A stretch of DNA of 64,000 bases from Candidatus Ozemobacteraceae bacterium. GTDB lineage: Bacteria > Muiribacteriota > Ozemobacteria > Ozemobacterales > Ozemobacteraceae. Below are positions 36,705-59,393 of the stretch, piece after piece. A model generated the notes under the pieces. The model had not been told where the DNA came from. It made no database searches and saw nothing but the letters and a program-made list of their open reading frames with translations. Where the stretch lies: positions 51,579 through 115,578 of the forward strand of contig DAOSOK010000013.1 of the NCBI GenBank assembly GCA_035373905.1, in the 5' to 3' direction. Within the stretch, counting starts at the first letter, position 1. Every line of letters begins with the position of its first letter. Both the position numbers and the translations under genes were made by a program.

Positions 36705-38372
<1,668 letters not shown>

Positions 38373-38400
38373 TCCCCGAAACCGCCGGGAAACGACAAAC

Positions 38401-38464: not shown

Positions 38465-38538
38465 ATGAATCGTTCCCGTCGTATCTCGATCATTCAGCTA
38501 CATTCATCAATAATCAAATATATCAGGAGGAATTTGAA

Positions 38539-38835: not shown

Positions 38836-38883
38836 TCGTCCGTCATCTCACCCGCATAAGTATTATATAAGGAGATATTGATA

Positions 38884-40509: not shown

Positions 40510-40589
40510 TCCGCTCAGCACTGAAACGGCCCTCCCCGGCGCTCTCACGGCCGGGGGGGGCTTTCCTGAACCAGGGAGACGCAGTATCG

Positions 40590-41705: not shown

Positions 41706-41706
41706 T

Positions 41707-42378
41707 GTGGCAAGCATTCTTCCAGAAAGCGAGACGATCATGACAGCCGAAGTGAACAAGACACAGCAGGCCCCCGAGGCTGCGCCGTCGCCCGCTCCGG
41801 AACAGGCCGCGAGCGAAAACGCCGCGCAACCGGCCGCAGGCACCAACGCAACCCAGGCTGAAGCCCCCCAGGGCGAGACCCCGCAGGCCGAAGCGGCCCG
41901 GCCCGAGGATCCCCTCGAAACCCTCAAAAAGGAAGTCGACGGCATCAAGAAGGAACTGGCCGAAACGAAGAACCGGTATCATCGCGCCCTGGCTGATTAC
42001 GACAACCTCAAGCGCCGGACCGACCAGAAGCTGCTCGAGATGTCGGAATACGGCTCTGAGGCGTTCGTGAAGAAGCTTCTGCCCGTGCTCGACACGTTCG
42101 AGTCAGCCATGCGCCAGCTGACCGACGCGAAGGTCGAGGCCAAGATCATGGACGGCTTCGAGATGCTCTTCTTCCAGTTCAACGACGTGCTCGAAAAGGA
42201 AGGGCTCAAGCCGATCCCGGCGAAGGGGCAGAAGTTCGACCCGAACCTGCATGAAGCCATGTCGAAGAGCACCGATCCGAACCAGGACGACGAGGTCGTC
42301 CTGATGGAGTATGAAAAGGGCTACATGTTCAAGAAACGCGTCATGAGAACGGCGAAAGTCGTCATCAACCACAAATAA
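41707..42378 (+). CDS. grpE: nucleotide exchange factor GrpE
   Basis: RALADYDNLKRRTDQKLLE ... FDPNLHEAM ... GYMFKKRVMRTAKVVI. GTG 41707 or ATG 41740 are alternative starts. Confidence 0.85.
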   Translation: MASILPESETIMTAEVNKTQQAPEAAPSPAPEQAASENAAQPAAGTNATQAEAPQGETPQAEAARPEDPLETLKKEVDGIKKELAETKNRYHRALADYDNLKRRTDQKLLEMSEYGSEAFVKKLLPVLDTFESAMRQLTDAKVEAKIMDGFEMLFFQFNDVLEKEGLKPIPAKGQKFDPNLHEAMSKSTDPNQDDEVVLMEYEKGYMFKKRVMRTAKVVINHK

Positions 42379-42450
42379 CCGAGTTTATTATATCCTTTCA
42401 CATACAGCGCCGCGGCGAGGCCGCACGCAACCAGACAGGAGGAACAATAC

Positions 42451-44319
<1,869 letters not shown>

Positions 44320-44387
44320 GTTGACGACACGCGGGGCGGGCCGCCAGGGTCCGCTCCGCATGGCCGCCGCGATTCCAGGAGACACAG

Positions 44388-45503
44388 ATGGCCAAGCGTG
44401 ACTACTACGAGGTTCTCGGCGTCGCGAAAAACGCCGATGAGGCCGAACTGAAGCGGGCCTACCGCACCCTTGCCCGCAAATACCATCCCGACGTGAACCC
44501 GGCGAAAGAGGCCGCGGAACAGTTCAAGGAAATAAACGAGGCCTACCAGATCCTCAGCGATCCGAAGAAGCGCAGCGCCTACGACCAGTTCGGCCACCAG
44601 GGGCTCGAAGGGGCCGGCTTCAACCCAGCCGACTTCCAGGGGTTCGGAAATTTCGGCGATATATTTGGCGATATATTGTCAGACTTCTTCGGCGGCGCGA
44701 GTCACAAGGCCGGCCCCCGCCGCGGCGCCGACCTGCGATATGACCTCGAGATCACCTTCGAGGAGGCCGTGTTCGGCTGCGAGAAGAAGATCACGGTCCA
44801 GCGCTCGGCAAACTGCACCCAGTGCGGCGGCTCCGGCGCCCAGACCGGAAGCAGCCGGAAGGTTTGCCCGGTCTGCCGCGGCAAAGGCACGATCTCCCTC
44901 GCCCAGGGTTTCTTCTCGATCCAACGCACCTGTCACCAGTGCCAGGGCGAGGGTGAGATCATCGACAAGCCCTGCAATACCTGCCACGGCCAGCGTCGCG
45001 TCAAGCACAGCGAAAGCCTCGACGTGAAGATTCCGCCCGGCGTCGAGACGGGCAGCAAACTGAAGCTCACGGGCGAAGGCGAAGCCGGTGACAAGGGCGG
45101 TCCTCCGGGCAGCCTGTACATCGTCCTGACGGTCGGCAGGCACGAACTGTTCGAACGTGTCGGTGACGATATCGTCTGCGAGCGCAACATCAGCTTCCCA
45201 CTCGCGGCTCTCGGCGGGGAAGTCGATGTTCCGACCCTCCAGGGCCCGGTCAAGATCAAGATCCCGACCGGCACCCAGACCGGCAAGGTGTTCCGGCTCC
45301 GCGGCTACGGCGTGAAGTCACTCCAGGGCGGCCAGGGAGACCAGCTCGTGAAGATCTTCGTCCGCACACCGACCGATCTGAGCGAAAAGGCGAAAGACCT
45401 CCTCAAACAGCTCGCGGCCGAGGACGGCGACGCCGATTCCAAGCTCGGCGAGGGCGGCAAGTCCTTCTTCGACAAGGTGAAGCAGGCCCTCGGAGGCCAT
45501 TGA
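44388..45503 (+). CDS. dnaJ: co-chaperone DnaJ (type I, with four CxxCxGxG zinc-finger repeats)
   Basis: J-domain DYYEVLGV...HPD, G/F region, CTQCGGSG / CPVCRGKG / CHQCQGEG / CNTCHGQR. Confidence 0.95.
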
Positions 45504-45529
45504 ACGGGCCGGATTTTTCTGTCATGTTC

Positions 45530-45560
45530 CGTAGGGGCGGGTTTCAAACCCGCCCCTACG
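45530..45560. repeat. family B palindrome copy 2; terminator-like hairpin right after dnaJ
   Basis: cgtaggggcgggtttcaaacccgcccctacg is a perfect palindrome 27 nt after the dnaJ stop. Confidence 0.55.
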
Positions 45561-45599
45561 CTGCATTCAAGGTGTTGTATAATGAAAGAGGAACGTTCA

Positions 45600-47075
45600 A
45601 TGTCGAATGGGGGGTTTGTCATGCGGTGCATCACTTTCGGCCTTTCGAGGCGCATTTTCAGGGTGATTCCCCACGCCCTCCTCCTGGCGGGTCTTCTTGC
45701 CCCCGCGTTCTGCGAGACTCCGGCGGCGAATGATGCGGTCCCGACCGTTTCCCAGGACTCCGGCAAGGCCGAGGACCTTCTGAAAAACCTCCATACGCTC
45801 TCGCGGATGAATCTCGAGCAGACCGAAACCATGCTCGAGATCTACCGGAAAAGCTTCGCCGCCGATTCGCGTTCCCCCGACACGCGCATCGTGTTATCGG
45901 CTCTCCTTCTTCGCAAGGCGAACCTTCTCAAGGCAGCCCCCTTCCCCGATGTCGAGGCATGCTTCATGGAAGCGGCAGACGTGATGCCCGATTCGTTCGA
46001 CGTTCAGTATCAATGGGGCCAGGCGCTGTTCGCCCGCGGAAATTTCGAGGCCGCCGTTCCGAAGCTGGAAGCCGCGGTCGCTCAGCGTCCCGAGCATCTC
46101 GACACGATCATGAAGCTCGGCATCTCGCAGCTGAAAATGATGAAATACGAGGAGGCACAGGCCCTCTTCGAGCGCGCCCAGAAACAGATCCCCAAGGATT
46201 ATCTCCTCCTGTATTTCCTCGGACGCTGCGCCTACGAACTGAAGGACTACGACAAGGCGGTCGAGTATTGGGAAGAGGCTCTCAAGCACATTCCCAACCA
46301 GGAGGAAGGCGCGGCGCTCCGCACCATGATCGGAAAAGCGCGCGAGCAGTCGGCCTCGATCGCGGGAACGACGACGGACGAGAACCAGCGGTTCGTGATC
46401 CATTACGCCGGCTCCTCCCAGAAGGATATCGGCGACGTGACGATGGAGGTCCTCGAGGACGTCTACGACCAGGTGACATCCGACCTGATGTATAAACCTG
46501 ACATTAAAATCAACGTCATCTTCTTCCTGACCGAGGAGTTCTACGAGATCAACAACTCCGGCCGCTGGGTCGGGGCCCTCGCCCAGGGCGAGAAGATCCT
46601 CGTTCCTCTTCAGCAGGGCTATTCCGACCTCCAGTCCGTGAAGGGCATTCTCGCCCACGAGTTCACGCACGTGATCGTGAACATGCGCACCAACAACCGG
46701 TGCCCGACCTGGGTCAACGAGGGGCTCGCGGTCTACGAGGAGTTCAAGTTCGCGAACGGCGATCCGACGGTGCTTCGCCCTGATTATGAGCGGCTGTTCC
46801 AGTCGAAGATCATCGGCGAGAAGCATTTCATCCCGCTCAAGGAGATCAATCTCAATCCCGCCCAGCAGACCTACGGCTACCAGATCGGCCTCGGGTATCT
46901 CCAGTCGTATCTCGCCATGAGGTTCCTGATCGAGCGCTGGGGCTGGCAGGCCGTCGATGCTCTTCTGAACTCAATCGGCAAAGGCGACTGGCTCGACGAC
47001 TCGTTGAACGAGGCGGCAGGCATGGAATTCTCCGAATTTCAGAAGGAACTGAACGACTGGATGCTGGGCCTCTGA
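45600..47075 (+). CDS. exported TPR-repeat protein with C-terminal Peptidase_MA-like (HExxH) domain
   Basis: Signal-like MRCITFGLSRRIFRVIPHALLLAGLLAPAFC. TPR-like helices through about residue 250. GILAHEFTHVIVNMRTNNRCPTWVNEGLAVYEE is HExxH plus a downstream Glu, as in the giant lipoprotein C-terminus. AGAGGA RBS before ATG 45600; an alternative start is at 45582. Confidence 0.6.
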   Translation: MSNGGFVMRCITFGLSRRIFRVIPHALLLAGLLAPAFCETPAANDAVPTVSQDSGKAEDLLKNLHTLSRMNLEQTETMLEIYRKSFAADSRSPDTRIVLSALLLRKANLLKAAPFPDVEACFMEAADVMPDSFDVQYQWGQALFARGNFEAAVPKLEAAVAQRPEHLDTIMKLGISQLKMMKYEEAQALFERAQKQIPKDYLLLYFLGRCAYELKDYDKAVEYWEEALKHIPNQEEGAALRTMIGKAREQSASIAGTTTDENQRFVIHYAGSSQKDIGDVTMEVLEDVYDQVTSDLMYKPDIKINVIFFLTEEFYEINNSGRWVGALAQGEKILVPLQQGYSDLQSVKGILAHEFTHVIVNMRTNNRCPTWVNEGLAVYEEFKFANGDPTVLRPDYERLFQSKIIGEKHFIPLKEINLNPAQQTYGYQIGLGYLQSYLAMRFLIERWGWQAVDALLNSIGKGDWLDDSLNEAAGMEFSEFQKELNDWMLGL

Positions 47076-47087: not shown

Positions 47088-47810
47088 ATGACCTCGACCA
47101 TCAACTTCTATGATGTTGCCGGCGCCATCGGAGTGGCTGCTTGGCTGTCGTATTCAACGTCGGGTTTCATTCGCAGTTCGGTGCCGCGGGAATCGGCTCT
47201 CGGGGCTTCGATATCTGCGCTCATCCTGGGTGTTCTCGGGGCCAGGCTTTTTTCAGGTTTCCTGGCTCTGGGCAGGCTGCCGACCCTGTCGGAGCTGCTG
47301 CATTTCGAGCGAGGCGGGTTCGCGTTTCACGGTTTCGTGCTGGGCGTCGTGATCGGAATTGCCGCAGCCGCCCAGGTGGTTCGCGCGAGGCTCCCCGAAC
47401 TGCTCGATGCTGCCGCTCCGGCGATGGCCCTGGCAACTGCCTGCTGGAGAACGGGCTGCTTTTTCAACGGCTGCTGCTGGGGAATCATCACCTATTCGCG
47501 ATTCGATCTTCCCCTTCCGGGCCATCACTCCCCTCCAACGATCGGCCTTCCCCTCCCTCTTTTCGAAGCATGCTTTCTCATCTCCGTTTTCCTGGCTCTG
47601 CATGCTCTGACGAAGCGTCAATTTCTCCCGAAAGGATGCATAGCAGCGCTCTATCTTTCATTCCACGCCGCATATCGGGTTGCAGCCGATGTCTGGCGCC
47701 CGGATTATTCGAACGTTTTCTATGGCATTTCCGTTTTTCTGTTGATATTCGGAGGTCTCTGGCTCCTCAAATTGCGAGGACAGGCACGGCTTAACAAACG
47801 CCAGCGCTAA
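47088..47810 (+). CDS. polytopic membrane protein, possible Lgt-like prolipoprotein diacylglyceryl transferase family
   Basis: Six or seven TM helices. The RTGCFFNGCCWG block resembles the Lgt signature region (G-N/C-F-x-N-G-x-x-x-G). Confidence 0.4.
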   Translation: MTSTINFYDVAGAIGVAAWLSYSTSGFIRSSVPRESALGASISALILGVLGARLFSGFLALGRLPTLSELLHFERGGFAFHGFVLGVVIGIAAAAQVVRARLPELLDAAAPAMALATACWRTGCFFNGCCWGIITYSRFDLPLPGHHSPPTIGLPLPLFEACFLISVFLALHALTKRQFLPKGCIAALYLSFHAAYRVAADVWRPDYSNVFYGISVFLLIFGGLWLLKLRGQARLNKRQR

Positions 47811-47876: not shown

Positions 47877-47906
47877 TTGACTTCCCCGAAGAATGTAGAA
47901 TATAAT
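47877..47906 (+). promoter_or_regulatory. sigma70-type promoter for the pilus/T2SS-like operon
   Basis: TTGACT - 17/18 nt - aTATAAT in an AT-rich patch 45 nt upstream of the gspE ATG. Confidence 0.45.
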
Positions 47907-47952
47907 ACTTGTCTGACTATTTCCGTCATCGTTATATATTCTAAGGAATTTA

Positions 47953-49602
47953 ATGAAGCAAATCGGTAGTTATCTGGTAGATGCAGCTCTCATCACGCAT
48001 GAGCAGTTGCAACGAGGGCTTGCTGTCAGCGAGAAGCAGAAGATCAGGCTCGGCGCAGCCCTCATCGACATGGGCTTCATAACCGAAGACGATCTTCAGA
48101 CGGCGCTGTCGAGTCAGTTCGGAATACCTAGAATCGACGCCGACGAACTGGTCGTCGATCCGACGGTTCTTCACGAGATTCCGGCCCAGCTTGCCCGACA
48201 ACTCAACGTGATTCCCCTGCACATCAAATCGGGGGCGCTCGTGGTCGCGACATCGGATCCTCTCAACATCAGCATTCTTGCTGACCTCGAAAGCAAGATC
48301 AAGCGGCGCATCGTGTTGGTCATAGCCTCCACCCACCAGATCAAACACGCCATTTCCCGCTACTACGCCGGTCGGGAGAGACTCGACGAGAGCATCAATC
48401 AGGTTCAGCTCATCGAAAACGAAACGTCAATCGACGAATTGGAAGCGGCCGATGCACAGATTCAAAGTGCCCCGATCGTGAAGTTCGTGAATCAGATCCT
48501 CCAGGGGGCGGTTAGAGAGCATGCTTCTGATATTCATGTCGAGCGCGACAATCTCGAGTTTCATATCCGGTATCGCATCGATGGCATGCTGAAAACGATG
48601 TTCCGACCCAAGCAGCATCTCCATCAGCTGATCGTATCGCGCATCAAGGTGATGGCACGACTTGACGTCAGCGAACATCGGATTCCCCAGGATGGTCGGA
48701 TCATGATGACGATGGATAACCAGCCAGTCGACTTTCGCGTGGCTATCTGTCCGTGCATTGACGGTGAGAATGCCGTCATCAGGGTTCTGAATCGTGACAA
48801 TCAAGCCATGGATCTCACCCATCTTGGTTTCAGCCCGGCCGGTCTGGAAAAACTTGAATCACTCATCTCGCGCAATTTCGGGTTGGTTCTCATTGCCGGA
48901 CAAACCGGCTCCGGAAAAACGACGACGCTGTATGCGATTCTGCAAAAGCTGAATGAAGAGCGGAAGAAGATCATCACCCTCGAAGATCCCGTTGAAAAGA
49001 GACTTCCGCTGCTCAATCAGATTCAGATCAATCCCAAAGTCGATCTCACGTTTGCAACCGGCCTTCGCTCCATCCTCCGAATGGATCCGGACATCATTCT
49101 CATCGGCGAGATCCGGGACGGCGAAACCGCCAATCTCGCGGTGAATGCCGCGATGACGGGCCACCTGGTCTTTTCGACGATTCACTGCGGCATCGCCGCC
49201 GAAGTGCCCGTGCGCCTGACCGAGATCGGCGTCGAACCGTATCTCGCCGCGAACGTCCTCCTCGGCACCATCGCCCAGCGTCTCGTACGCTTGAACTGCC
49301 CGAATTGTCTCGTCGAAGAAGAGCTGTCAGAGCAGATTCGCAAGCGCTTCGACCCCGACTTCCAGAGCTACCGGGGAAAAGGCTGCGCCGCGTGTGCCGG
49401 CATCGGATATCGCGGTCGGGGCTGTATCGAGGAAGTGATGCCGGTAACCGACGAGATCAGGAAATTGATGCTTGCCCGTGCGACAACCCGTCAACTCGAG
49501 GAACAGGCCGTCAAAAACGGAATGGTTCCGTTGCTGGAATCGGGCATTTCCAAAATTCGTCATAAGCAAACCAGCTTCATGGAGCTGGCCAGAGTCCTTT
49601 GA
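47953..49602 (+). CDS. gspE: GspE/PilB/MshE-family secretion-pilus assembly ATPase with MshEN-type N-terminal domain
   Basis: Walker A LIAGQTGSGKTTTL, Asp box, Walker B DPDIILIGEIRD, His box, and the tetracysteine motif CPNC...CAAC. The N-terminus carries RLGAALIDMGFITEDDLQTALSSQ. Confidence 0.9.
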   Translation: MKQIGSYLVDAALITHEQLQRGLAVSEKQKIRLGAALIDMGFITEDDLQTALSSQFGIPRIDADELVVDPTVLHEIPAQLARQLNVIPLHIKSGALVVATSDPLNISILADLESKIKRRIVLVIASTHQIKHAISRYYAGRERLDESINQVQLIENETSIDELEAADAQIQSAPIVKFVNQILQGAVREHASDIHVERDNLEFHIRYRIDGMLKTMFRPKQHLHQLIVSRIKVMARLDVSEHRIPQDGRIMMTMDNQPVDFRVAICPCIDGENAVIRVLNRDNQAMDLTHLGFSPAGLEKLESLISRNFGLVLIAGQTGSGKTTTLYAILQKLNEERKKIITLEDPVEKRLPLLNQIQINPKVDLTFATGLRSILRMDPDIILIGEIRDGETANLAVNAAMTGHLVFSTIHCGIAAEVPVRLTEIGVEPYLAANVLLGTIAQRLVRLNCPNCLVEEELSEQIRKRFDPDFQSYRGKGCAACAGIGYRGRGCIEEVMPVTDEIRKLMLARATTRQLEEQAVKNGMVPLLESGISKIRHKQTSFMELARVL

Positions 49603-49643
49603 CGCGCTTCCACGCGCCCCAGGGCTGATTATCAGGAGAACCA

Positions 49644-50861
49644 ATGGCTATATACGAGTTTCAGGCAAAAGACAGCGAAGGCAAGACCGTCAGCGGAACA
49701 CTTACTTCGAGCGATGATTCCGCCGCCATGGCCGAACTCACGTCACGAGGGCTGTGGGTCGCCTCGCTTGTCGAAACGTCGAGCGCCACCTCCCTCAGTT
49801 CCGAGATTCGATTGTTCTCGTTCGTTTCCGCGGAAACGCTCAATACATTTCTTCTGCAACTTTCGATCATGATCAAGTGCGGCGTGAGCCTTGCCGAAGC
49901 CCTGCAATCGCTGGAACAAACCGAAACCAGCACGGTATTCAAGCAGGCGCTTTCGGACGTCAGGCTCGATGTGGCCGCCGGCAAATCATTTTCGGAAGCC
50001 CTTTCCCGGCATCCGGAAATCTTCGACAGATTCATGATTGCCATGGTCCGAATCGGTGAAACTGGTGGCGTTCTCGAAGAGGTTCTCGCCAAACTGGCAT
50101 CGACGAGCAAGCGTCGCCTTTCCCTGAGAAACCAGATCCTGGGATCGCTTGCCTATCCCATGCTCCTTCTCTGCGTCGCGACGCTGGTCGTCACGGTCCT
50201 GGTCGTTTTCGCCGTCCCCAAGTTCGCCGTATTGTTCGAGTCCGCGAAAGTCGAGCTTCCCGTCACGACCAGGGCCCTTATCGCCGGAAGCAAGCTGATC
50301 GAGGAACACATCAGATTGGTCGGCGGGCTGTTCGCCGCCGCCGTCGTCGGCGGCATTCTGACGCTGTTCAATTCGACCGTTCAATGTCACCTCGGGGAAG
50401 CAGCCATGCTTCTCCCCGTTCTGAGGCAGGTCGTGCAGAAATACCATGTGGTGTTGATTTCCGAGCCGCTTTCCATGCTGCTTGCCGCCGGAGTTCCGTT
50501 GCGCGAACTTCTGATAGCAATCGAGAACACGATCGAGATGACGACCCCCAAATCAGTCGTGATCAAGATGCGTGAGCACATCGAACGGGGAGCAAGCCTC
50601 CAGCAAGCGCTCGAACAAAATCCGATCTTTCCTCCGATGGCCGTCAAGCTCGTGGAGACCGGCGAACGCACCGGAGCTCTCGACAAAATGTTCAAGGAAA
50701 TCGCCGAGTTCTATGACGATCAGCTGCAGACAGCCATGAAATCGGCTCTCAGCCTTCTCGAACCGCTCTTGATCCTCGGCGTTGCCGTCATCGTCGGTTT
50801 CATCATGCTATCCGTCTTCGTGCCCATCTACCAGATGAGCTTCATGATCAAAAAGGCCTGA
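49644..50861 (+). CDS. gspF: GspF/PilC-family inner-membrane platform protein
   Basis: Two T2SSF repeats and three TM regions. C-terminal ...LEPLLILGVAVIVGFIMLSVFVPIYQM. Confidence 0.9.
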   Translation: MAIYEFQAKDSEGKTVSGTLTSSDDSAAMAELTSRGLWVASLVETSSATSLSSEIRLFSFVSAETLNTFLLQLSIMIKCGVSLAEALQSLEQTETSTVFKQALSDVRLDVAAGKSFSEALSRHPEIFDRFMIAMVRIGETGGVLEEVLAKLASTSKRRLSLRNQILGSLAYPMLLLCVATLVVTVLVVFAVPKFAVLFESAKVELPVTTRALIAGSKLIEEHIRLVGGLFAAAVVGGILTLFNSTVQCHLGEAAMLLPVLRQVVQKYHVVLISEPLSMLLAAGVPLRELLIAIENTIEMTTPKSVVIKMREHIERGASLQQALEQNPIFPPMAVKLVETGERTGALDKMFKEIAEFYDDQLQTAMKSALSLLEPLLILGVAVIVGFIMLSVFVPIYQMSFMIKKA

Positions 50862-50862
50862 T

Positions 50863-51387
50863 ATGAAGCGAACCGGGCCTTCAGGCTTTTCCCTATGGGA
50901 GCTTCTGCTCACCTGTGCCGTTGCGATCGTTGCGGCTCCCCTCGTCCTACCGCTCTTCTTCGTGGATTCGCATGCGGCATCAGACGAAACCGCCAGTCGG
51001 ATCATCCTCGGAGCCATACAGCAAACACGCAGTGCCGGCCTTGCAGGCAGGGTCGTCGGAGGGCGAATTTCGTTTACCAGCGCGACGTCGACGTTTACGA
51101 TGCAGTCCGACCAGCAGGCTCTTCCGTCCGGTTATGTGATCAAATCGATATCTCTCGACGGCACTCAGATTTCGGCCATAGAGGCCGGGTTCGATCCGCT
51201 CGGAAACATCTCTTTCACCCCATACGGGAACCAAGCGGTCCTGACGCTCGCAAGAGCCGACGGCACAGAAATCCGGACGATCACCCTCGAAGGCAAAGGA
51301 ATCCCAATTCCGCAACCGACTGCCGGAACTGCCGAAACCGGCGGTTCTTCGGGCGGCGGCGGCGGACGAGGGTGCAGATGGTTGTGA
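50863..51387 (+). CDS. pseudopilin (class III signal, E+5)
   Basis: MKRTGPSG|FSLWELLLTCAVAIVA. Confidence 0.65.
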   Translation: MKRTGPSGFSLWELLLTCAVAIVAAPLVLPLFFVDSHAASDETASRIILGAIQQTRSAGLAGRVVGGRISFTSATSTFTMQSDQQALPSGYVIKSISLDGTQISAIEAGFDPLGNISFTPYGNQAVLTLARADGTEIRTITLEGKGIPIPQPTAGTAETGGSSGGGGGRGCRWL

Positions 51388-51815
51388 AATCATTTTCCAG
51401 AGGGTTTTCTCTTGCCGAGATCCTCGTGGCGATCCCCTTAGTCGCGGTGATCTCCATGAGCCTCGCCTACTTCGGTTCAATCTACTCGTTTTCCAATTCT
51501 CAGACCATCGGCAGGTTCCGCTGTCAGATCGCCGTTCACAATCTCCTGACGCTGGTCCAGGCGGCAAGCGATACCGCCGCCCTGACCGTCGTGAGCCGCC
51601 ATATTCAGGGGGGCGGCACCGCAGGCCCGCTTCTGACCTCATCACCCGCCCATCCTGACGGCTCCTCGGCACTCACGGTGTCTTCGAGCGTTTCCTCAGT
51701 GACCGGATACGGCATGACGTTCGGCGGATCTCCCGCCATGCCGTTTCATGTCGCCGTAACCGATGAGACAACCGGAGCGCGCTCTGAAATCATCACCTAT
51801 GTCACAACCCACTGA
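51378..51815 (+). CDS. pseudopilin (class III signal, E+5)
   Basis: MVVKSFSRG|FSLAEILVAIPLVAVI. Overlaps the previous gene by 10 nt. The track ORF 50895..51815 is a spurious N-terminal extension in this frame. Confidence 0.6.
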   Translation: MVVKSFSRGFSLAEILVAIPLVAVISMSLAYFGSIYSFSNSQTIGRFRCQIAVHNLLTLVQAASDTAALTVVSRHIQGGGTAGPLLTSSPAHPDGSSALTVSSSVSSVTGYGMTFGGSPAMPFHVAVTDETTGARSEIITYVTTH

Positions 51816-51819
51816 TGTC

Positions 51820-52227
51820 ATGAACAAACGATATGCACGCATAGGATTCACGTTGATGGAGCTCCTTTCCGTCATCGCCCTTTCCACCATTTTTGCCGGG
51901 ATATCTCTCGGCCCCCTCATGATGCAGTTTTCGCTCGTTTTCGAAAGCAACGCACGCGTCGCCGAAGTCAATCGTCTGATGGAAGCGGCTCTTCTCGTTT
52001 CGCGCACAATCACCCAGAGTCGTGCCTTTGCATCGAGTTTCGCCTTCACCGGAGACGAGAATCTCACCTGGACCGATGAGACGGGCCAGGTCCATACCAT
52101 CCTCGAACAGGTGACGGGCTCGATAACGACCGATGCATCGAATGACCAAACCGTCGTCATACGCCTCGAAGGCAAGAGAATTCCCGGCGGAGCGACCGTC
52201 CGCATGCTTGCCTATCCGTTGAGATGA
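51820..52227 (+). CDS. pseudopilin (class III signal, E+5)
   Basis: MNKRYARIG|FTLMELLSVIALSTIFA. Upstream in-frame ATGs at 51763 and 51799 are also possible. Confidence 0.6.
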   Translation: MNKRYARIGFTLMELLSVIALSTIFAGISLGPLMMQFSLVFESNARVAEVNRLMEAALLVSRTITQSRAFASSFAFTGDENLTWTDETGQVHTILEQVTGSITTDASNDQTVVIRLEGKRIPGGATVRMLAYPLR

Positions 52228-52253
52228 CCCTCCCCACGAAGCCCGGAGAACCT

Positions 52254-54233
52254 ATGAGAGAACGAACACCTTCGATATCGTGCAACCGAGGATACATTCT
52301 TGCCGCAATCCTGTTTCTCATTCTCGTTTCAGCGTCGATAGCGCCGCTTCTGCTGCATGACGCGCAAACCATTCCGAAACGCCCCCAGACATTCGAAGAG
52401 ATGTTTCGCATCCATTGGGCGCTCGAAGGGGCAAATCAGTGGCAGTTGCACGAAGCGAACATAAACGTCGTCGAACCCTTCTGCGGCTTCGTGAACTCCG
52501 TTGCGACATTTTCCTATCCTGATGGTTTCAAGGTTCGCGTCGATCTTCTCGAAGGTCGAACGATGCTTGCCAGAAACAGATTTCTCAAGGCTTCTGCCAA
52601 GGCATATCACGGGAATGTCGCCGCCGATTATGATTTCAGCCGGTTGTCATCCGCGCCTGCGGCCATTCCCGGCGTGACCGCAGGGGGTGCTCACAGTTTC
52701 GGCTGGAAAGCGAACGGCTCTCTCCTTGCCTGGGGACTGAATACGAATGGCCGGCTTGGCACGAACGACACCGCCCAGCGCGCGACCCCGACTCCTGTGA
52801 ACAAGGGCGATTGTTTGGACGTCGGAACCGATTTCAGCCAGGGGTGGAACGTCGCGGCGGGTGGAGACCACAGCCTCGTGCTCGACATGCACGGAAATGC
52901 GTGGGCGTTCGGAAACAACGCCTACGGGCAGCTTGGCTCCGGGAACACCACGGCGTATTATGCTCCGCATGCCGTCACGAACGGGTCCGACCACCTTTCA
53001 AACGTGAGCGACATCGCCGCCGGCACCTCGTTCAGTCTCGCGATCATCCGTCCGAACGGTAATGTTCTAGCCTGGGGACTGAATTCGAATGGACAACTGG
53101 GCAACACATATCCGAAACCCTGGCTAGGAACCCCCTCGAATTCCTCCGTTCCGGTGACCGTTCGAACCTCGCAAAGCAGCATCATCGGGATCGTCGGCAT
53201 TGCCGCGGGTCGTGAACACGCTCTGGCGATCGATAAAACAGGCCATATTTACGCTTGGGGGAACAACGCCAACGGTCAGATCGGATTTGACGCGGGTAAC
53301 TACTCGCCTTTTGCCGTTACGGTCAATAGCGGCGAAATATCCGAGATCGCTTCTTCTCCTTTCACGACCACCGCAAGGACGAATCCCGGAACGACGCAGG
53401 TCTATATCCCGTCGAGATTCGGCATATCCAGCATAACGGTGGAACTGAACGTCGCGATACCGTGGAATTTGTGGGGCGTTTCTTCGTATGCGAAATTTCA
53501 GCATCTGAGCATTTCCACCTACTCCGTCAACGTCATCTTCAGTTCATACACGAATCCATCGTCAAACCGGTATATTTGGAAATTCGATCAGATCGAGTCG
53601 GAGACGACATACGAATTTCAATATCCGGGAACATACACCCTGACGGTTCAAGCGCCGAGTTCCTGGCTCAGCACCTCGGCATCGAACGCGAATGGAAAAT
53701 GGTTCTACACCTCTTCCCCCGCCAAGATCGGCGTTCATACGCTGCGCGGCTATCCCAAACTTCCGACGGCTTACATCGGCGTTGCTGCCGGAGATTATCA
53801 CTCGATCGCCGTCGCAAGCGAATCGAACACGACGTCGCTTCTGGCATGGGGGCTGAATTCGAGCGGGCAACTCGGACTCGGCGATACCGTTTCTCGCGAT
53901 CGCCCGGTTCCCGTTCCAAACTGTTCGAACGTCCGACGGGTCGTTTGCGGTGCCTACCATACCCTCGCGTTGAAGAATGACGGAACGGTCTGGGCATGGG
54001 GAGACAATTCGTACGGACAGCTCGGGATCGGCTCGACGGTGTCCAAATCCGTCCCGACGCGAATTACGTCTCTCACCGACATCGTCGGAATCGCGGCCGG
54101 CTCGTATCATTCCCTCGCGATTTCCGCGAATGGAACCGTGTATTCATGGGGCCGCGGCGACAACGGCAGACTCGGAACCGGCGCCGTCAGCGGCAATCAA
54201 ACTTCACCGGCGATCGTTACGGGTTTTCCGTAA
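52254..54233 (+). CDS. GspK/PilX-like N-terminal pseudopilin segment (no E+5) fused to a seven-bladed RCC1-repeat beta-propeller
   Basis: MRERTPSISCNRG|YILAAILFLILVSASIAPLL. There are seven RCC1-type blades: WGLNTNGRLGTND, FGNNAYGQLGSGNT, WGLNSNGQLGNT, WGNNANGQIGF, WGLNSSGQLGLGDT, WGDNSYGQLGIGST, WGRGDNGRLGTG. Confidence 0.75.
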   Translation: MRERTPSISCNRGYILAAILFLILVSASIAPLLLHDAQTIPKRPQTFEEMFRIHWALEGANQWQLHEANINVVEPFCGFVNSVATFSYPDGFKVRVDLLEGRTMLARNRFLKASAKAYHGNVAADYDFSRLSSAPAAIPGVTAGGAHSFGWKANGSLLAWGLNTNGRLGTNDTAQRATPTPVNKGDCLDVGTDFSQGWNVAAGGDHSLVLDMHGNAWAFGNNAYGQLGSGNTTAYYAPHAVTNGSDHLSNVSDIAAGTSFSLAIIRPNGNVLAWGLNSNGQLGNTYPKPWLGTPSNSSVPVTVRTSQSSIIGIVGIAAGREHALAIDKTGHIYAWGNNANGQIGFDAGNYSPFAVTVNSGEISEIASSPFTTTARTNPGTTQVYIPSRFGISSITVELNVAIPWNLWGVSSYAKFQHLSISTYSVNVIFSSYTNPSSNRYIWKFDQIESETTYEFQYPGTYTLTVQAPSSWLSTSASNANGKWFYTSSPAKIGVHTLRGYPKLPTAYIGVAAGDYHSIAVASESNTTSLLAWGLNSSGQLGLGDTVSRDRPVPVPNCSNVRRVVCGAYHTLALKNDGTVWAWGDNSYGQLGIGSTVSKSVPTRITSLTDIVGIAAGSYHSLAISANGTVYSWGRGDNGRLGTGAVSGNQTSPAIVTGFP

Positions 54234-54338
54234 CCTGCCGATAGGCGAACAGTTCTTCTTGCCATTCTCAGGCAGTTCGTATAATAATCGATATTTCTCC
54301 ATTGTGCCGCTGATGTCACATCCTGAAGCCGGAGGTAT

Positions 54339-55820
54339 ATGATGACCGCTCGCACGTATCAGAAACCGGGCTTTGTCGAAATCGAATCATCCTATGCCCG
54401 GCTTGTCCGTCACGAAACCCAGGGATGGGCATGCAAGACCATCCCGCTGGTAGGCGATTCCCCCTGGCCGCTCCTCAAAACCGAGATGCAATCGTTTTTT
54501 CCCGGCGGATCGCAGCTGGTGTTCGTTTTTCAGGAGCGATGCGGAATACGGATGTTTCATTTCCCATCGACCTTGTCACCAACCGAAATTCTTGGAAATC
54601 TCCGCCTTCGGCGAGATGAATACTTCGGTTCTCGAGAAGAGTATCTGCTTTCCCTTCGGATGGGCAATCCGGTCGACGGCAAGAATCGGGAAGTCTATGT
54701 CACGTTCGTTCCCCGATCCCTGAGTGACTCAGCCCAGGAACTCTGCGCCAGCCTGGGCTATTCCCTCCAACGCATCGTAACCGGCTTCGATGCGCTGCTC
54801 GGAGCCACGGCCCGCCAGCTCGGCCGCAACAACCCCGAAACCGTCGTCATCGCGAGTCTCGGATATTCGCAGGTGAATCTGGCTGCATGGCGCGGCGGAG
54901 AACTCATCATGGTCCGGTCGCTCCTTACCGGTTCCATCAAAGAACTCGAAAACGCCGTGTTCTCCGCATTTTCGATCACCCCGCCCGATCTCATGAGAAT
55001 CCTGTCGGAATCGCTGGAAGTCCCCCCGGCCGTCAAGAATTCGATCGCCGATAACCGACAGGAGATCATGACGCACATCGGAACGCTTTTCGCCGAACTT
55101 CGAGGCCGAAAGCTCCTCTCCGAGAACCCGACCCTGTTCCTTTGCCAGCCGGTCGTCGCGGAGCCTCAACTTGCGTCCATGTTGTCCGAAAGATTCTCGG
55201 CACGAGTCATCGAGCTGAACGGCATCATGCAAGATGAAACGGCCGTCGGCGAGGATTTTCCCAGGTGGAGCTGGCTCTTGGGCGGCGTCATGCCGGCGGC
55301 CATCAACGTGCTTCCCCCGCGCACCCGGAGGGAACGTCTTCTGGCGGCATCTCCCCGGCTCGCCTTTTTCGCCATGATCGTGATGTGCATCGCCCCGTTC
55401 ATTCTCATGAGATCGTTGAAATCAAATATCGCCCTGGAAAACGCTCTGCTCATCGAACAGAATCAGGCTTTCAACCAGATCGTCGAACTCAATCGGTCCA
55501 ACCAGGAGTTGTATGCCGGTGTCGAGACGATAGCCAGCGGAGTAACCGCCGACATTTCCCGGCGCGGCCAGACAACCACGCTCATTCGATATCTTTCCGA
55601 AAGCCTGCCCGCCTTAACACGGCTCGAAAAGCTGGAAATATTGAACAAAGAAGGCAAAGTGACCATTTCCGGGAAATCCGTGGACACGGAATCCTCTCTT
55701 CGGTATCTCGATGCCGTGAAAGCGTCACCGTTCCTCGAAAAGGTGGAAATCTCCTTCGACTCGCCGGGCGGAACGACCGTTTCCTTCTCCATCACCGGTC
55801 TGCTCACCAAGAAGGGATGA
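54339..55820 (+). CDS. PilM-like (actin-fold) domain fused to PilN-like domain
   Basis: The 330-aa N-terminal cytoplasmic domain has divergent PilM-like organisation. Then INVLPPRTRRER (PilN INLLPxR motif), TM LAFFAMIVMCIAPFILM, and a periplasmic coiled-coil/beta domain. Confidence 0.5.
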   Translation: MMTARTYQKPGFVEIESSYARLVRHETQGWACKTIPLVGDSPWPLLKTEMQSFFPGGSQLVFVFQERCGIRMFHFPSTLSPTEILGNLRLRRDEYFGSREEYLLSLRMGNPVDGKNREVYVTFVPRSLSDSAQELCASLGYSLQRIVTGFDALLGATARQLGRNNPETVVIASLGYSQVNLAAWRGGELIMVRSLLTGSIKELENAVFSAFSITPPDLMRILSESLEVPPAVKNSIADNRQEIMTHIGTLFAELRGRKLLSENPTLFLCQPVVAEPQLASMLSERFSARVIELNGIMQDETAVGEDFPRWSWLLGGVMPAAINVLPPRTRRERLLAASPRLAFFAMIVMCIAPFILMRSLKSNIALENALLIEQNQAFNQIVELNRSNQELYAGVETIASGVTADISRRGQTTTLIRYLSESLPALTRLEKLEILNKEGKVTISGKSVDTESSLRYLDAVKASPFLEKVEISFDSPGGTTVSFSITGLLTKKG

Positions 55821-55827
55821 CATTTCA

Positions 55828-56373
55828 ATGTTTGAGCGAATATTGCGGTATCTGGTCATCATCGGGCTTTTGTTCCTGCCGTGGCGCTATTCTCTGCTCG
55901 CGGAACTTTCACAGCTCAAGGCAGGCCGTCAGCAAAACGTCGATACGACCGCCACGATACGCCATCTCGCGGACGGACGCGGCGAGGTCATGAAAAAAGC
56001 CCTCGAACTGCAACGCCAGCAACTCAAGGCACGGCAGAGGGCGCTTTCCTTCATTCTCCCCCCGTTTTCCCAAGCCCGCGCGAACCTCATGGCGTCATTC
56101 GATACGGTGCGTTCGCAAATTCCCGGCGAATGGGAAGTCGTTCCCGAGGGGAAGTTCCATTCGGAAGGAATGCATGTCGTCTGGCCGTTCCGGTTCAAAT
56201 ATATCGGCACCTATGCGAATGCGGTCAAGGCGCTCGCCGCGATGGAGACGGCCCCCCAGTTGCTGCGCCTCACCAGGACGACCGTGACCGGGGCCGGAAG
56301 CAGCGTCATCGTCGAAGGGAACGTCGAGATGGTGTATCTTGATGACACCGCGTCAGGGGGGGTGAGCCTGTGA
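55828..56373 (+). CDS. PilO-like bitopic protein
   Basis: N-terminal TM ILRYLVIIGLLFLPW, then a coiled coil, then an alpha/beta domain. Position after PilN and 4-nt overlap with the next gene. Confidence 0.45.
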   Translation: MFERILRYLVIIGLLFLPWRYSLLAELSQLKAGRQQNVDTTATIRHLADGRGEVMKKALELQRQQLKARQRALSFILPPFSQARANLMASFDTVRSQIPGEWEVVPEGKFHSEGMHVVWPFRFKYIGTYANAVKALAAMETAPQLLRLTRTTVTGAGSSVIVEGNVEMVYLDDTASGGVSL

Positions 56374-56777
56374 ACGACACGCTGAAATTCGCCGTCGTGG
56401 CTTCGACGGTATCCCTGGTTCTGTTCGGATTGAATGTCTACCACATCCTCTTCGGGAACCTCACTCCCCGCATGAGCGATATCGCCAACATCCAGATCGC
56501 CTTCGTCCAGACCATCGTCTCCCCGTCCGCGTCGAAGTTGATCGAGTCTCTCCACGAAACGCTGAAACCGTTCACTCCCTTCTTTTACGAGAACATGAAG
56601 CTGTACGGCATGCGCCGTTCCGGAAACGCCGAATGGACCGCGCTGTTCGCGGGAGAGTCGGAAAACGTCATCGCGCTGAAACCGGGCTCCTCATACGAGG
56701 GGGTCACGGTCGTCAGAACGGATGAACGATCCTGTCATGTGACATACGGCACCGTCGAACGCGATTTTTCCTTATAA
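56370..56777 (+). CDS. PilP-like small periplasmic protein
   Basis: N-terminal TM/signal FAVVASTVSLVLFGL, C-terminal beta-rich ...ALKPGSSYEGVTVVRTDERSCHVTY, directly upstream of the secretin. Confidence 0.4.
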   Translation: MNDTLKFAVVASTVSLVLFGLNVYHILFGNLTPRMSDIANIQIAFVQTIVSPSASKLIESLHETLKPFTPFFYENMKLYGMRRSGNAEWTALFAGESENVIALKPGSSYEGVTVVRTDERSCHVTYGTVERDFSL

Positions 56778-56821
56778 CGATAATAATATATTTACCCACA
56801 CACCACGGGAGCATCGATGAT

Positions 56822-58747
56822 ATGAACCGGTTCAAACCAAGCAGGATCGTGTCGGCCACCGCCGTCGGTTGTCTGTTGCTGGCCTCCAGCCATCTGTTGA
56901 AGGCCGCATCCGGGAATGATTCTCAAAAACCAGAAACGCCGCCGGCGCTTTCCGCTCTCACGTCCGCTCAGAAACAGGCCGTCCCGTCGGGCTCCCTCTC
57001 GATGGTCATTCGCGGGATGCCGACCGAGCAGGCGCTGGAGCAGGTTGCAGCGAATTTCGGTCTTCAACTCCAGCCGCAGGTCGAATTGCCCGGGGCCGTC
57101 AACCTCGAGTTCGACGGCGCCGGCCTCGACCAGGCAATGAGCGAGATCGTCGGTCCGCTGAACCTCGACTGGATGGTTGAAAACGGCCGTCTGCACGTCT
57201 TTCAACCCCGCCAGCCCTGGACGCACGTGAGCGACGCCGCGAACGGCGCCCCGTCCATGGCGGCCATTCCGCTCGTGAAGCCGGAAGAGCCTGTCTCGAG
57301 CCGCATCGTCGTCCTGAAAAAGCGAAAGGCCGAAGACATTCAGAAGCTCATCAAGGATCTGAGCACCGGCATGAACATCGTCACCGACGCGCCTACGAAC
57401 TCCCTCATCTGTCTGGGCACCGAGAAGCAACTCGCCGAAGCGGAGCAGCTCGCGAAGAGTCTCGACGAACTGCCTCCTTCCGCCCAGGGAGTCGCCTCCT
57501 CCCCGCTCGTGGCGAAAGTCGAGTTCATCACCGAGATCTTCAAACTCGACCATGTCGACTTCGACAGTCTCGAGAAAGAGCTGACGTCGGTGATTGCCCG
57601 CGAAACCTCAGGAACGGGGAGCTCAAATCAGCAAGCGGCGCTGACAAAAGACGGCAAGCCGATCGAGAAAGAGTATTTTCTCCTCGATCGGGAACGGCGC
57701 ATCGTTCTCATCCATTCAACGCTGGAAAAAATTGCCAGTCTCAAAACCTATTTCACAACGATCAACCAGCCGCTCGCTCAGGTCATGATCGAAGCCCAGA
57801 TCGTCGCGGTCGACACCGACTTCGAGAAGAACATGGGCATCAAATGGAACACCTCCGTCGGGTATACCGGCCCCGCCAATGCCTGGAGCACGGGGAAATT
57901 CGATCCCGTTCAACTTCCGCCCGCGAACTCCGTTCAATCACCGAACGCGGATACCTACCAGTCCTTCCAGTTCGGCAAGTGGAGCCTGAACAACCTCCAG
58001 GCACTTCTCGACACTGCCCAATCCCAGAACAAGGCGCAGGTTCTCTCGAGGCCGAAGATCATGTCGGTCACCGGGAAGAAGGCGAAGATCCAGATCGGCA
58101 CGAAGATTCCCTACACCACCTCGACGACGCTCACCGACGGCGGGAATACAACCGAAAACGTGAATTTCGTCGACGTCGGCATCATTCTCGACGTCACGCC
58201 CATGATCCACACCGACAATCACACGGTTCGCATGACGGTGAAGCCCGAGGTTTCCGATGCGATCGCCTACGCGAAGAACGGCGCCCCGATCATCGCGACA
58301 CGCCAGACGGAAGCCACCGTCGAGGTGAGGAACGGGGAAACGATGGTCATCGGCGGCCTCCTGACCAGCGAAAACGGCAAATCAACGACCGGTGTGCCGC
58401 TGCTCCGAGACGTTCCCGTTCTCGGCGAATTCTTCAAGTTTTCCAAGAGAACCAACAAGAAGACGAATCTCATGATTCTCATCACCACCCGCATCGTCGA
58501 TACCGAATTCGAAGGCACCCTTTCACCCAGGCTCGCGACATCGATCAGCATGATGCACGGCAATCCCGCGGTCATCGCCTCTTCACCGATCGCAAGCCTC
58601 ACGCTCCCCCTGAGCTTGAAGTCTGAAGGGTCGTCCAAACAGGCCCCATCCGAAAAGAAAGCCCCCATCGTGAAAGATCATCGGCTTTCCAACGTCGCCA
58701 AGGAATCAACCGCCCCCGCAGGAAACGAAAAAAAGCCCCAGCGATAG
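56822..58747 (+). CDS. secretin (GspD/PilQ family outer-membrane channel)
   Basis: Signal peptide, N0/N1-type domains, and the secretin C-domain ...AQVLSRPKIMSVTGKKAKIQIGTKIPY ... GETMVIGGLLTSENGKSTTGVPLLRDVPVLGEFFKFSKRTNKKTNLMILITTRIV. Confidence 0.9.
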   Translation: MNRFKPSRIVSATAVGCLLLASSHLLKAASGNDSQKPETPPALSALTSAQKQAVPSGSLSMVIRGMPTEQALEQVAANFGLQLQPQVELPGAVNLEFDGAGLDQAMSEIVGPLNLDWMVENGRLHVFQPRQPWTHVSDAANGAPSMAAIPLVKPEEPVSSRIVVLKKRKAEDIQKLIKDLSTGMNIVTDAPTNSLICLGTEKQLAEAEQLAKSLDELPPSAQGVASSPLVAKVEFITEIFKLDHVDFDSLEKELTSVIARETSGTGSSNQQAALTKDGKPIEKEYFLLDRERRIVLIHSTLEKIASLKTYFTTINQPLAQVMIEAQIVAVDTDFEKNMGIKWNTSVGYTGPANAWSTGKFDPVQLPPANSVQSPNADTYQSFQFGKWSLNNLQALLDTAQSQNKAQVLSRPKIMSVTGKKAKIQIGTKIPYTTSTTLTDGGNTTENVNFVDVGIILDVTPMIHTDNHTVRMTVKPEVSDAIAYAKNGAPIIATRQTEATVEVRNGETMVIGGLLTSENGKSTTGVPLLRDVPVLGEFFKFSKRTNKKTNLMILITTRIVDTEFEGTLSPRLATSISMMHGNPAVIASSPIASLTLPLSLKSEGSSKQAPSEKKAPIVKDHRLSNVAKESTAPAGNEKKPQR

Positions 58748-58800
58748 GCCGCACGTCTCAGAATGCAAAACGTCCGATGAACCTGGTTCATTTTACATTC

Positions 58801-58829
58801 TTGACTGAAATGACATCTTCGCTTATAAT
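58801..58829 (+). promoter_or_regulatory. near-consensus sigma70 promoter for the pilin gene
   Basis: TTGACT - 17 nt - TATAAT, about 50 nt upstream of the pilin ATG, in an AT-rich patch after the secretin gene. Confidence 0.5.
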
Positions 58830-58882
58830 TCACACCTCGTCAGTTCTGTTCAAAACACTCACACACCGGAGGCCACCTTCAA

Positions 58883-59335
58883 ATGATCCGTTCAAATCGT
58901 GGTTTTACCCTCATGGAACTCCTTCTCGTCATTGCCATTCTGGCAATCGTCGCCGCCGCCGCTGCCCCAAGTTTCTTCGGCGGCGCGACTGATGCGATGA
59001 AAGAAGCTCGGCGGGCTGCTTTCGTCTCTAATTTCAATAGCGTTCTTTCTGCCGCTAATATTTACCTTGCCAACGAGCAGGCAGCCGGAAGAGCAGGTGT
59101 AAAAGCTGGTACAGTTGTCTATTCGGCTCTTAAAGATAAAATGATTTCTGCACAAACGTTCAATGTGAAAAATTCTGCAGGAACGGTTGGCACCATTACA
59201 GCTCAAATCGTTCAGGCTGATGCCACCCTCAATACCTTCAAAGTATCTATGCATCAGTGCAAAGATAATGCCGGTACAGTTACCGGTAATGAAATTACCG
59301 ATCCGGGAGTTACTTTCGATACATTCACTCCGTGA
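58883..59335 (+). CDS. type IV pilin / major pseudopilin
   Basis: MIRSNRG|FTLMELLLVIAILAIVAAAAAPSFFG has E+5. 150 aa, with C-terminal Cys pair C...C (MHQCKDNAG...). Confidence 0.8.
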   Translation: MIRSNRGFTLMELLLVIAILAIVAAAAAPSFFGGATDAMKEARRAAFVSNFNSVLSAANIYLANEQAAGRAGVKAGTVVYSALKDKMISAQTFNVKNSAGTVGTITAQIVQADATLNTFKVSMHQCKDNAGTVTGNEITDPGVTFDTFTP

Positions 59336-59365
59336 AGAAGTTTTGTTTTTTATAAACCGCCCGAT

Positions 59366-59393
59366 CTCGGGCGGTTTTTTTATTATTACAAAA
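59366..59393 (+). terminator. canonical intrinsic terminator after the pilin gene
   Basis: accgcccga tct cgggcggt followed by ttttttt. Confidence 0.75.

Follow-up and report, generated by a model that had tools for sequence, protein, structure and literature searches.

An 11-gene type IV filament operon with a PilM–PilN fusion and an RCC1-propeller protein in Candidatus Ozemobacteraceae

The 64-kb stretch of Candidatus Ozemobacteraceae DNA analysed here (assembly GCA_035373905.1, contig DAOSOK010000013.1; hereafter the window) carries an operon of 11 genes, g1 to g11, whose products resemble the parts of a type IV filament machine. We take Ozemobacteraceae to be a family within the candidate phylum Riflebacteria, and the literature on Riflebacteria and Ozemobacter contained nothing on pili of these bacteria. 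All 11 genes lie on the plus strand and span positions 47953–59335, with a largest intergenic gap of 135 bp, in the inventory and order that an earlier sequence-only reading of this DNA had described. The same sequence is also present on a JGI contig and in GCA_029547365.1.

The operon opens with genes for an extension ATPase of the PilB/GspE type (g1, 47953–49602) and an inner-membrane platform protein of the PilC/GspF family (g2, 49644–50861). Three minor pilin genes follow, encoding proteins of 174, 145 and 135 amino acids (g3, 50863–51387; g4, 51378–51815; g5, 51820–52227) with the motifs G↓FSLWE, G↓FSLAE and G↓FTLME, respectively, the arrow marking the predicted cleavage site and each motif ending in the glutamate of position +5. 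The next gene, g6 (52224–54233), encodes a 669-residue protein in which a pilin-like N-terminal helix lacking this glutamate (Glu5) is joined to an RCC1 propeller, and g7 (54339–55820) encodes a PilM–PilN fusion of 493 residues. Two bitopic membrane proteins occupy the PilO/GspM position (g8, 55828–56373, 181 residues) and the PilP/GspC position (g9, 56370–56777, 135 residues), and they are followed by an outer-membrane secretin (g10, 56822–58747) and a major pilin of 150 residues with a 7-residue leader, the motif G↓FTLMELL and Glu at +5 (g11, 58883–59335). The successive spacings from g1 to g11 are 41, 1, −10, 4, −4, 105, 7, −4, 44 and 135 bp. The open reading frame (ORF) of g4 is concealed within a longer spurious one (50895–51815); the length of g5 is counted from the start at 51820, other possible starts being 51763 and 51799; and the NCBI annotation places the start of g6 (HOT28179.1) at 52254.

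A promoter-like site 5′ of g1 (47877–47906, plus strand; TTGACT, 18 nt, TATAAT) is sigma-70-like at 11 of 12 positions, as a consensus match only. A second such site, also matching at 11 of 12 positions, lies in the 135-bp gap 5′ of g11 (58801–58829, plus strand), and a terminator-like hairpin with a 10-bp stem, seven of whose pairs are GC, follows g11 at 59354–59377 (plus strand), with a T-run reaching 59387; the proposal that g11 has its own promoter and terminator is borne out to this extent. An Rfam scan of the window returned no match. Proteins were assigned to families by comparing NCBIfam model scores with their cut-offs, and four of the 11 (g3, g7, g8 and g9) matched no Pfam or NCBIfam family above cut-off.

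The ATPase g1 matched Pfam T2SSE (1.6e-121) and MshEN (4.4e-22). PilB (TIGR02538) was its best NCBIfam model at 531 bits, under the cut-off of 675.65, followed by GspE at 508 bits (cut-off 630.25), and its top PDB matches, over the whole length, were PilB/PilF of Geobacter, Myxococcus and Thermus. Residues 3–55 form an N-terminal MshE-type motif in the tandem 24-5-24-residue MshEN arrangement, in which motif 2 (R32–Q55) is a perfect consensus and motif 1 (Q3–S26) is degenerate. The corresponding cyclic di-GMP (c-di-GMP) motif model, NF053729, scored 51.9 bits, above its cut-off of 38, and both repeats are kept in 10 orthologs; in addition, g1 contains a tetracysteine motif and one further MshEN-like domain. 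It is reasonable to infer from this conserved motif that c-di-GMP may gate assembly through g1.

This motif raises the possibility of a c-di-GMP-switched adhesive pilus like that of the mannose-sensitive haemagglutinin (MSH) systems, that is, a single-locus sister lineage of the type IVa pilus (T4aP) with no dedicated retraction ATPase. The operon shares with the MSHA pilus both the tandem 24-residue c-di-GMP motif of MshE and the organisation in a single locus (PMC6668835), and the window contains no PilT. We nevertheless regard this explanation as quite improbable. MshEN motifs occur also in PilB and some GspE proteins and are therefore not diagnostic. The secretin g10 gave 146 bits with MshL (TIGR02519), under the cut-off of 250.2 and lower than its scores with PilQ or GspD; apart from MshL, no MSH-specific NCBIfam model scored E ≤ 0.01 with any operon protein; and PilT is linked to the orthologous operon at a related locus, L006.

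The platform protein g2 contains two T2SSF repeats (2.4e-57). It scored 288 bits with GspF (cut-off 424) and 221–238 bits with the PilC models (cut-off 700), and its top PDB match was Myxococcus xanthus PilC (185 bits). The secretin g10 has a signal peptide, a Secretin domain (8.9e-47) and one Secretin_N domain (5.9e-10), and no AMIN domain was found by Pfam search. Its best secretin model was PilQ (TIGR02515) at 209 bits (cut-off 284.35), with GspD at 187.5 bits (cut-off 351.35); against PDB chains, the GspD-type chain 5wln of Pseudomonas aeruginosa scored 123 bits and PilQ about 95. No operon component reached an NCBIfam equivalog or subfamily cut-off for T4aP, MSH or type II secretion systems (T2SS). 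The expectation that the system would not file cleanly under T4aP or T2SS is in agreement with these scores, and the system is about equidistant from the two.

A candidate liposecretin tied to the adjacent lgt-like gene was rejected, since the cysteine of its 'AVGC' motif occurs only in the window and in the related locus L002, the other orthologs having ordinary signal peptides. A short gene of the Lgt family (prolipoprotein diacylglyceryl transferase) adjoins the pilus operon in the window (47088–47810, plus strand), in L006 (21356–21997, minus strand) and in L013 (15194–15799, minus strand). These three genes are 26–30% mutually identical, their loci are differently arranged, and the secretin is no conserved lipoprotein.

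An alternative that several of these features invite is a T2SS, in which g11 would form a short periplasmic pseudopilus capped by g3–g6 that pushes folded exoproteins through the secretin, with the parts of GspL, GspM and a minimal GspC taken by g7, g8 and g9, respectively. The order of the genes resembles E-F-pseudopilins-K-L-M-C-D, and they occupy a single locus without PilT in the window. GspF was the best platform model, and a GspD-type chain was the best match among solved secretins. Many atypical systems outside Proteobacteria have moreover been reassigned to T2SS by Denise et al. (PMC6668835). We consider a T2SS unlikely, however, because the GspE, GspF and GspD equivalog scores all fall under their cut-offs and because of the pilin, g7 and tip evidence that follows.

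The class III signal peptide G↓F-x-x-x-E is present in g3, g4, g5 and g11. Orthologs of g3 read G↓(F/V)TLMELL and match N_methyl; g4 matches N_methyl and TIGR02532 weakly and is 80% identical in L002 and 38–40% identical in L006 and L008; g5 matches N_methyl at 6.5e-4. The minor pilins showed no H, I, J or K family match in Pfam or NCBIfam beyond the N_methyl motif, the single trace of typing being GspH at E 0.19 in one ortholog. The pattern seen is that of three Glu+5 proteins plus one Glu5-less protein, g6. The major pilin g11 begins MIRSNRG↓FTLMELL and matches N_methyl (1e-8) and TIGR02532 (1.8e-8). With GspG (TIGR01710) it scored only 27 bits against a cut-off of 88.85, over the N-terminal helix only, which argues against a T2SS pseudopilin.

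The same pilin is the most divergent operon protein between strains, with 52% identity in L002 compared with 74–100% for the other proteins, and such hypervariability would be unexpected for a periplasmic pseudopilin. At the DNA level, the window is about 80–85% identical to L002, L003 and L004 over most of the operon. L003 and L004 are 100% identical to the window over g9, the secretin and the pilin (region ~56100–59300), and L002 is 100% identical over 56440–57440 and then 69–73% identical over the 3′ end of the secretin gene and the pilin gene. This mosaic identity points to recombination breakpoints within the operon and to a swapping of pilin alleles, and it shows that recombination has exchanged the secretin–pilin segment.

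The RCC1 part of g6 is unambiguous in Pfam (RCC1 3.5e-75; WD40_RLD 4.8e-88). In the AlphaFold2 (AF2) model, with a mean predicted local distance difference test score (pLDDT) of 74, the hydrophobic helix of G↓YILAA and a small sheet (residues ~22–129) precede a seven-bladed RCC1 propeller (150–370 and 520–669) that is predicted with high confidence and matches UVR8 with a TM-score of 0.87 in Foldseek; a beta-sandwich is inserted into the propeller at residues 391–476. The N terminus is built alike in seven orthologs: a basic stretch, Gly at −1, (Y/V)-(I/L/M)-L and a hydrophobic helix that lacks Glu at +5. Thereafter, the orthologs share a conserved segment of ~100 residues, which AF2 models, with low confidence, as the remainder of a long helix and a small sheet. 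No N_methyl, GspK or PilX match was found for this N terminus in Pfam or NCBIfam. The earlier description of g6 as a GspK-like–RCC1 fusion accordingly stands for the RCC1 fusion, and its GspK part has no family support; 'GspK/PilX-like' may serve as a label suggested by the gene position, the Glu5-less motif and the lollipop-like AF2 model. Among the best 120 RCC1 homologs of g6, the pilin-like N terminus occurs only in Riflebacteria proteins.

By analogy, PilX2 and modular pilins provide precedent for a role of an RCC1 tip in adhesion (PMC11623550, PMC8179133). PilX2 of the T4P-2 type IV pilus of Saccharibacteria (TM7x) is a proposed tip adhesin needed for efficient host binding, and, like g6, it carries a heptabladed RCC1 beta-propeller behind a pilin-like N-terminal helix that has no canonical PilD signal (PMC11623550). 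It differs in that its host belongs to the monoderm Patescibacteria, without secretin or PilMNOP, and in that it lacks the extra beta-sandwich that g6 carries in its propeller; no sequence relationship between the two was found beyond the RCC1 repeats. Modular pilins occur widely, in 264 described architectures (Raynaud et al. 2021; PMC8179133), and g6 likewise carries an extra grafted module, the propeller with its beta-sandwich. Because g6 has no detectable IPR012902/N_methyl signature, that survey would have missed it. The PilY1/PilC tip adhesins and the modular pilins (PilB/PilC of Streptococcus sanguinis, CofB, ComZ, GspK) also present a bulky module at the filament tip through a minor-pilin complex. 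PilY1 uses a beta-propeller as g6 does, but it is a non-pilin whose propeller belongs to family IPR008707 and not to RCC1. For the T2SS explanation, a 55-kDa propeller on a tip subunit is a further difficulty: it resembles the adhesins of type IV pili, T2SSs are without PilY1-like tips (PMC10191384), and GspK has an alpha-domain where g6 has its RCC1 propeller.

The AF2 model of g7 (mean pLDDT 84.5) consists of an actin-like PilM domain (residues 1–~320), a transmembrane (TM) helix and coiled coil (339–407) and a ferredoxin-like PilN domain (411–489). In Foldseek comparisons it matched PilM at 9e-19 and the cytoplasmic domains of GspL at about 5e-8. Among 13 members of the g7 family, Pfam found PilN in seven, PilM_2 in two and GspL in none, and M. 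xanthus PilM was the sole match of the family profile among PDB sequences. The junction keeps the sequence 'AINVLPP' (INVLPP at ~321–326), where homologs carry NLLP or NLIP, and within the closer homolog set N323 does not vary. This motif corresponds to the N-terminal INLLP peptide through which PilN docks on PilM in the solved structures 5eou and 2ych. In our reading, g7 is an end-to-end fusion of a complete PilM with a complete PilN, and the fusion proposed from the letters alone is confirmed in fold, motif and C-terminal domain.

Since GspL likewise combines PilM and PilN in one fusion (PMC10191384), the fused architecture counts in favour of a T2SS. The details of g7 count against it. Its cytoplasmic domain is of the full ~320-residue PilM type with the INLLP motif, compared with ~240 residues in GspL; it is far closer to PilM than to the GspL cytoplasmic domain; and its family never matches GspL. 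The architecture of g7 is thus that of GspL, but g7 is probably no GspL ortholog.

The g7 family is rare. A word-indexed search with g7 returned two homologs, and an exhaustive HMMER scan of 1.84 billion protein representatives gave 20 matches, about 13 of them full-length (483–517 residues). Scanning of 185,579 species genomes for the family identified seven loci, labelled Riflebacteria (three), uncultured bacterium (two), bacterium ADurb.Bin157 (one) and Erysipelotrichia (one). The fusion family was found only in metagenome-assembled genomes (MAGs) of the Riflebacteria group, the Erysipelotrichia label being probably a mislabel. The locus concerned, L010 (SABV01000125.1), holds a full Riflebacteria-type operon in a MAG labelled 'Erysipelotrichia bacterium', probably through an error of binning or taxonomy.

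The two membrane proteins after g7 are conserved at every related locus: g8, with an N-terminal TM helix, a predicted coiled coil and a C-terminal domain, in 10 loci, and g9, with an N-terminal TM helix and a small C-terminal domain, in nine. Neither showed detectable homology to PilO/PilP or GspM/GspC when all family members were searched against Pfam and their profiles were run by hmmsearch against PDB chains, and an hhalign comparison of g8 with the PilN part of g7 was not significant (probability 5%). PilO/GspM and PilP/GspC roles for g8 and g9 are suggested by position, size and the N-terminal TM helix; of the names 'PilO-like' and 'PilP-like', the positional and topological sense holds, and no sequence or profile support was found. 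GspC is anchored by a TM helix and PilP by lipid, and the TM anchor of g9 therefore speaks for the T2SS explanation. On the other side, no GspC, GspM or GspL profile match was obtained in the operon.

Both fusions recur in independent assemblies (Logan, JGI, ENA and NCBI) of different species at 34–87% identity, with the RCC1 fusion at 658–686 residues and the PilM–PilN fusion at 492–499 residues. L002, at ~82–85% DNA identity, has the same 11 genes in the same order, its RCC1 fusion being 658 and its g7 homolog 492 residues long. The more distant L006/L007, L008 and L010 keep both fused ORFs, with g6 39–42% and g7 39–40% identical. A frameshift or assembly artefact as the origin of the fusions is excluded because distant relatives in independent assemblies keep the same fused ORFs, and we conclude that both fusions are real.

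Gene order in Riflebacteria is not fixed, the E-F, pilin and MN-O-P-Q modules being permuted. Three arrangements were found: E-F-pilins-RCC1-MN-O-P-Q-pilin; MN-O-P-Q-E-F-pilins, an arrangement that lacks an RCC1 fusion inside the operon; and E-F-MN-O-P-Q. At L008, a divergent second set lies back-to-back with the main operon (136–5152, minus strand) and comprises a pilin, a 552-residue ATPase, a 404-residue platform protein and a 494-residue g7 homolog of 24% identity. This second set indicates that Riflebacteria carry at least two paralogous systems with a PilM–PilN fusion.

Neither PilT nor a prepilin peptidase was found in the 64-kb window, in line with the sequence-only reading, or within 8 kb upstream (GCA_029547365.1, contig JAKPPM010000117.1). 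At L006, two ATPases of the PilT/PilU family (464 and 427 bits; cut-off 319) directly follow the pilin gene of the operon, the second fused to cyclic-nucleotide (cNMP)-binding and MshEN-like domains. A homolog search with the L006 PilT returned many Riflebacteria PilT proteins; one of them, P0150, is named as bacterium ADurb.Bin157, the MAG in which the related locus L013 lies. The two PilT contigs examined belong to samples other than that of the window. In Riflebacteria, as seen at L006 (17315–21313) and L021–L024, PilT genes are consistently followed by a gene for a cNMP-binding protein of ~329 residues, which suggests, from gene order, cyclic-nucleotide control of pilus retraction. The window itself encodes, at 3575–5020, a protein with cNMP_binding and AAA_31 domains.

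Taken together, the genes probably encode, in a diderm host, a complete type IV filament machine that spans the envelope and belongs to the T4aP/T2SS/MSH clade, and we hold with moderate confidence that it is a surface-exposed pilus with an adhesive tip, possibly a retractile one. We favour a surface pilus over a pseudopilus because g11 is not GspG-like, because g11 is hypervariable between strains and the secretin–pilin segment has been exchanged by recombination, because the cytoplasmic ring domain of g7 has the full PilM fold, because two PilT-family genes follow the operon pilin in L006, and because other Riflebacteria MAGs, ADurb.Bin157 among them, have PilT. The adjoining PilT genes of L006 count equally against a T2SS.

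Several observations weigh against this interpretation. PilT and the prepilin peptidase are missing from the window and its upstream flank, and no homology of g8 and g9 to PilO/PilP or GspM/GspC was detected. There is a slight T2SS lean in the platform protein (GspF 288 compared with PilC 238 bits) and in the GspD-type top PDB match of the secretin. The pilin-like N-terminal part of g6 has a pLDDT of 40–65 and no family match, and the loci L009 and L012 have no RCC1 fusion inside the operon, from which it follows that the fusion is not essential to the machine.

For the surface pilus, a mechanism can be proposed from gene order and motifs. A prepilin peptidase whose gene lies elsewhere would process the prepilins g3, g4, g5 and g11, and possibly g6. 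Together with the Glu5-less g6, the three Glu+5 minor pilins would form a priming and tip complex in the manner of GspH-I-J-K or FimU-PilV-W-X. The propeller and beta-sandwich of g6 would then sit at the tip of the pilus and serve there as a ligand-binding module, as in a modular pilin or PilY1. Hexameric g1, probably gated by c-di-GMP through its MshEN motif, would drive g2 to polymerise the separately promoted g11. Of the remaining proteins, g7, g8 and g9 would make up an alignment subcomplex linking this motor to the secretin g10, the predicted exit route of the fibre. Retraction, if any, would depend on a PilT encoded elsewhere in the genome.

Compared with the T4aP systems of M. xanthus, Thermus thermophilus and P. 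aeruginosa, the operon shares an ATPase that aligns with PilB over its full length, a platform protein nearest to M. xanthus PilC among solved chains, the complete PilM fold with the PilN motif and domain, a secretin, a short-leader major pilin with Phe+1 and Glu+5, four minor pilin-like genes of which one lacks Glu5, and, in the relative L006, an adjoining PilT. It differs in that PilM and PilN form one polypeptide, that sequence does not identify the proteins found in the PilO and PilP positions, that the secretin has no detected AMIN domain, that there is no separate PilY1, its place being taken by a propeller fused to the Glu5-less pilin, and that all equivalog scores fall under their cut-offs. 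Here, too, everything except PilT and PilD lies in one operon, and T4aP genes are usually spread over several loci (PMC6668835). With the T2SS (Gsp/Pul), the shared features are the single operon of E, F, pseudopilins and secretin, the lack of PilT in the locus, the GspL-like fusion (PMC10191384) and the Glu5-less fourth minor pilin, which parallels GspK; the differences lie in the non-GspG, hypervariable g11 and in the g7 and tip features described above.

These comparisons limit how unusual the locus can be called. The 11.5-kb unit had been described as uncommonly compact, which overstates the case: systems of the MSH and Tad types nearly always occupy one locus, and T4aP alone is typically scattered (PMC6668835). 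The gsp genes of T2SSs, too, usually lie in one operon. A mixing of T2SS and T4aP logic is visible in the gene order, but it is largely a matter of naming, since GspL is a PilM+PilN fusion and the T4aP and T2SS machines are near-identical (PMC10191384). The order is permuted in relatives. As for the suggestion of a distinct subtype, it holds in the sense of a Riflebacteria-specific variant and not in the sense of a new kind of system, and there are already 884 'generic' type IV filament systems that defy classification (PMC6668835). The operon is a genuine and well-preserved lineage-specific variant of a T4aP/T2SS-type machine.

Other features of the window lie outside the operon. A TadA/VirB11-like ATPase of 691 residues (TIGR03819, 302 bits, under cut-off; T2SSE domain at 338–615) and its partner, a platform-type protein of 509 residues with two T2SSF repeats, are encoded at 18478–22111 (minus strand); the pair appears to belong to a Tad-like system, has no relation to the operon and is not a PilT. 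A region at 26293–35846 (minus strand) encodes a 478-residue protein with an N-terminal N_methyl pilin motif (30447–31880, minus strand), adjoining proteins of 870 and 265 residues without family match, and a 1309-residue protein that has Ig-like, fn3 and Big_5 domains and matches Peptidase_M30 weakly; it may be a giant-pilin or surface-protein cluster. Directly upstream of the operon lies a chaperone cluster (36315–47075, plus strand) with two Cpn60/GroEL paralogs, each after an ORF of ~100 residues, followed by hrcA-grpE-dnaK-dnaJ and then by a gene for a protein with TPR and Peptidase_MA domains, and a separate GrpE-like protein of 571 residues with a zinc ribbon is encoded at 24374–26089. 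Downstream, at 61335–63905 (plus strand), an 856-residue bacterial protein has major vault protein domains (MVP_shoulder 7.7e-31; Vault_3 1.4e-7) and, in L002 and L003, is 96–97% conserved in the same place, behind the guanylate kinase gene.

The operon leaves the understanding of how type IV filaments work unchanged and documents a phylum-restricted form of the machine. Its g7 is a natural PilM–PilN tether, which could be of use in structural studies of the alignment subcomplex, and g6, as a second and independent example of an RCC1-propeller pilin, supports propeller tips as a recurrent solution for pilus adhesion. The operon proteins could also seed profiles with which TXSScan-type tools would be able to detect systems of this kind in uncultured phyla. 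Beyond this, we tentatively suggest, as a doubtful proposal, that the GspL-type architecture arose a second time, independently: a complete PilM and a complete PilN would have been joined, with the INLLP docking peptide kept, in a PilT-associated pilus lineage branching near the T4aP/T2SS split, the RCC1 propeller on a Glu5-less minor pilin taking a PilY1-like tip role. If so, the lineage would be a snapshot of T4aP-type machines remodelled towards T2SS-like organisation, and the RCC1 tip may mediate cell–cell attachment, as in Saccharibacteria.

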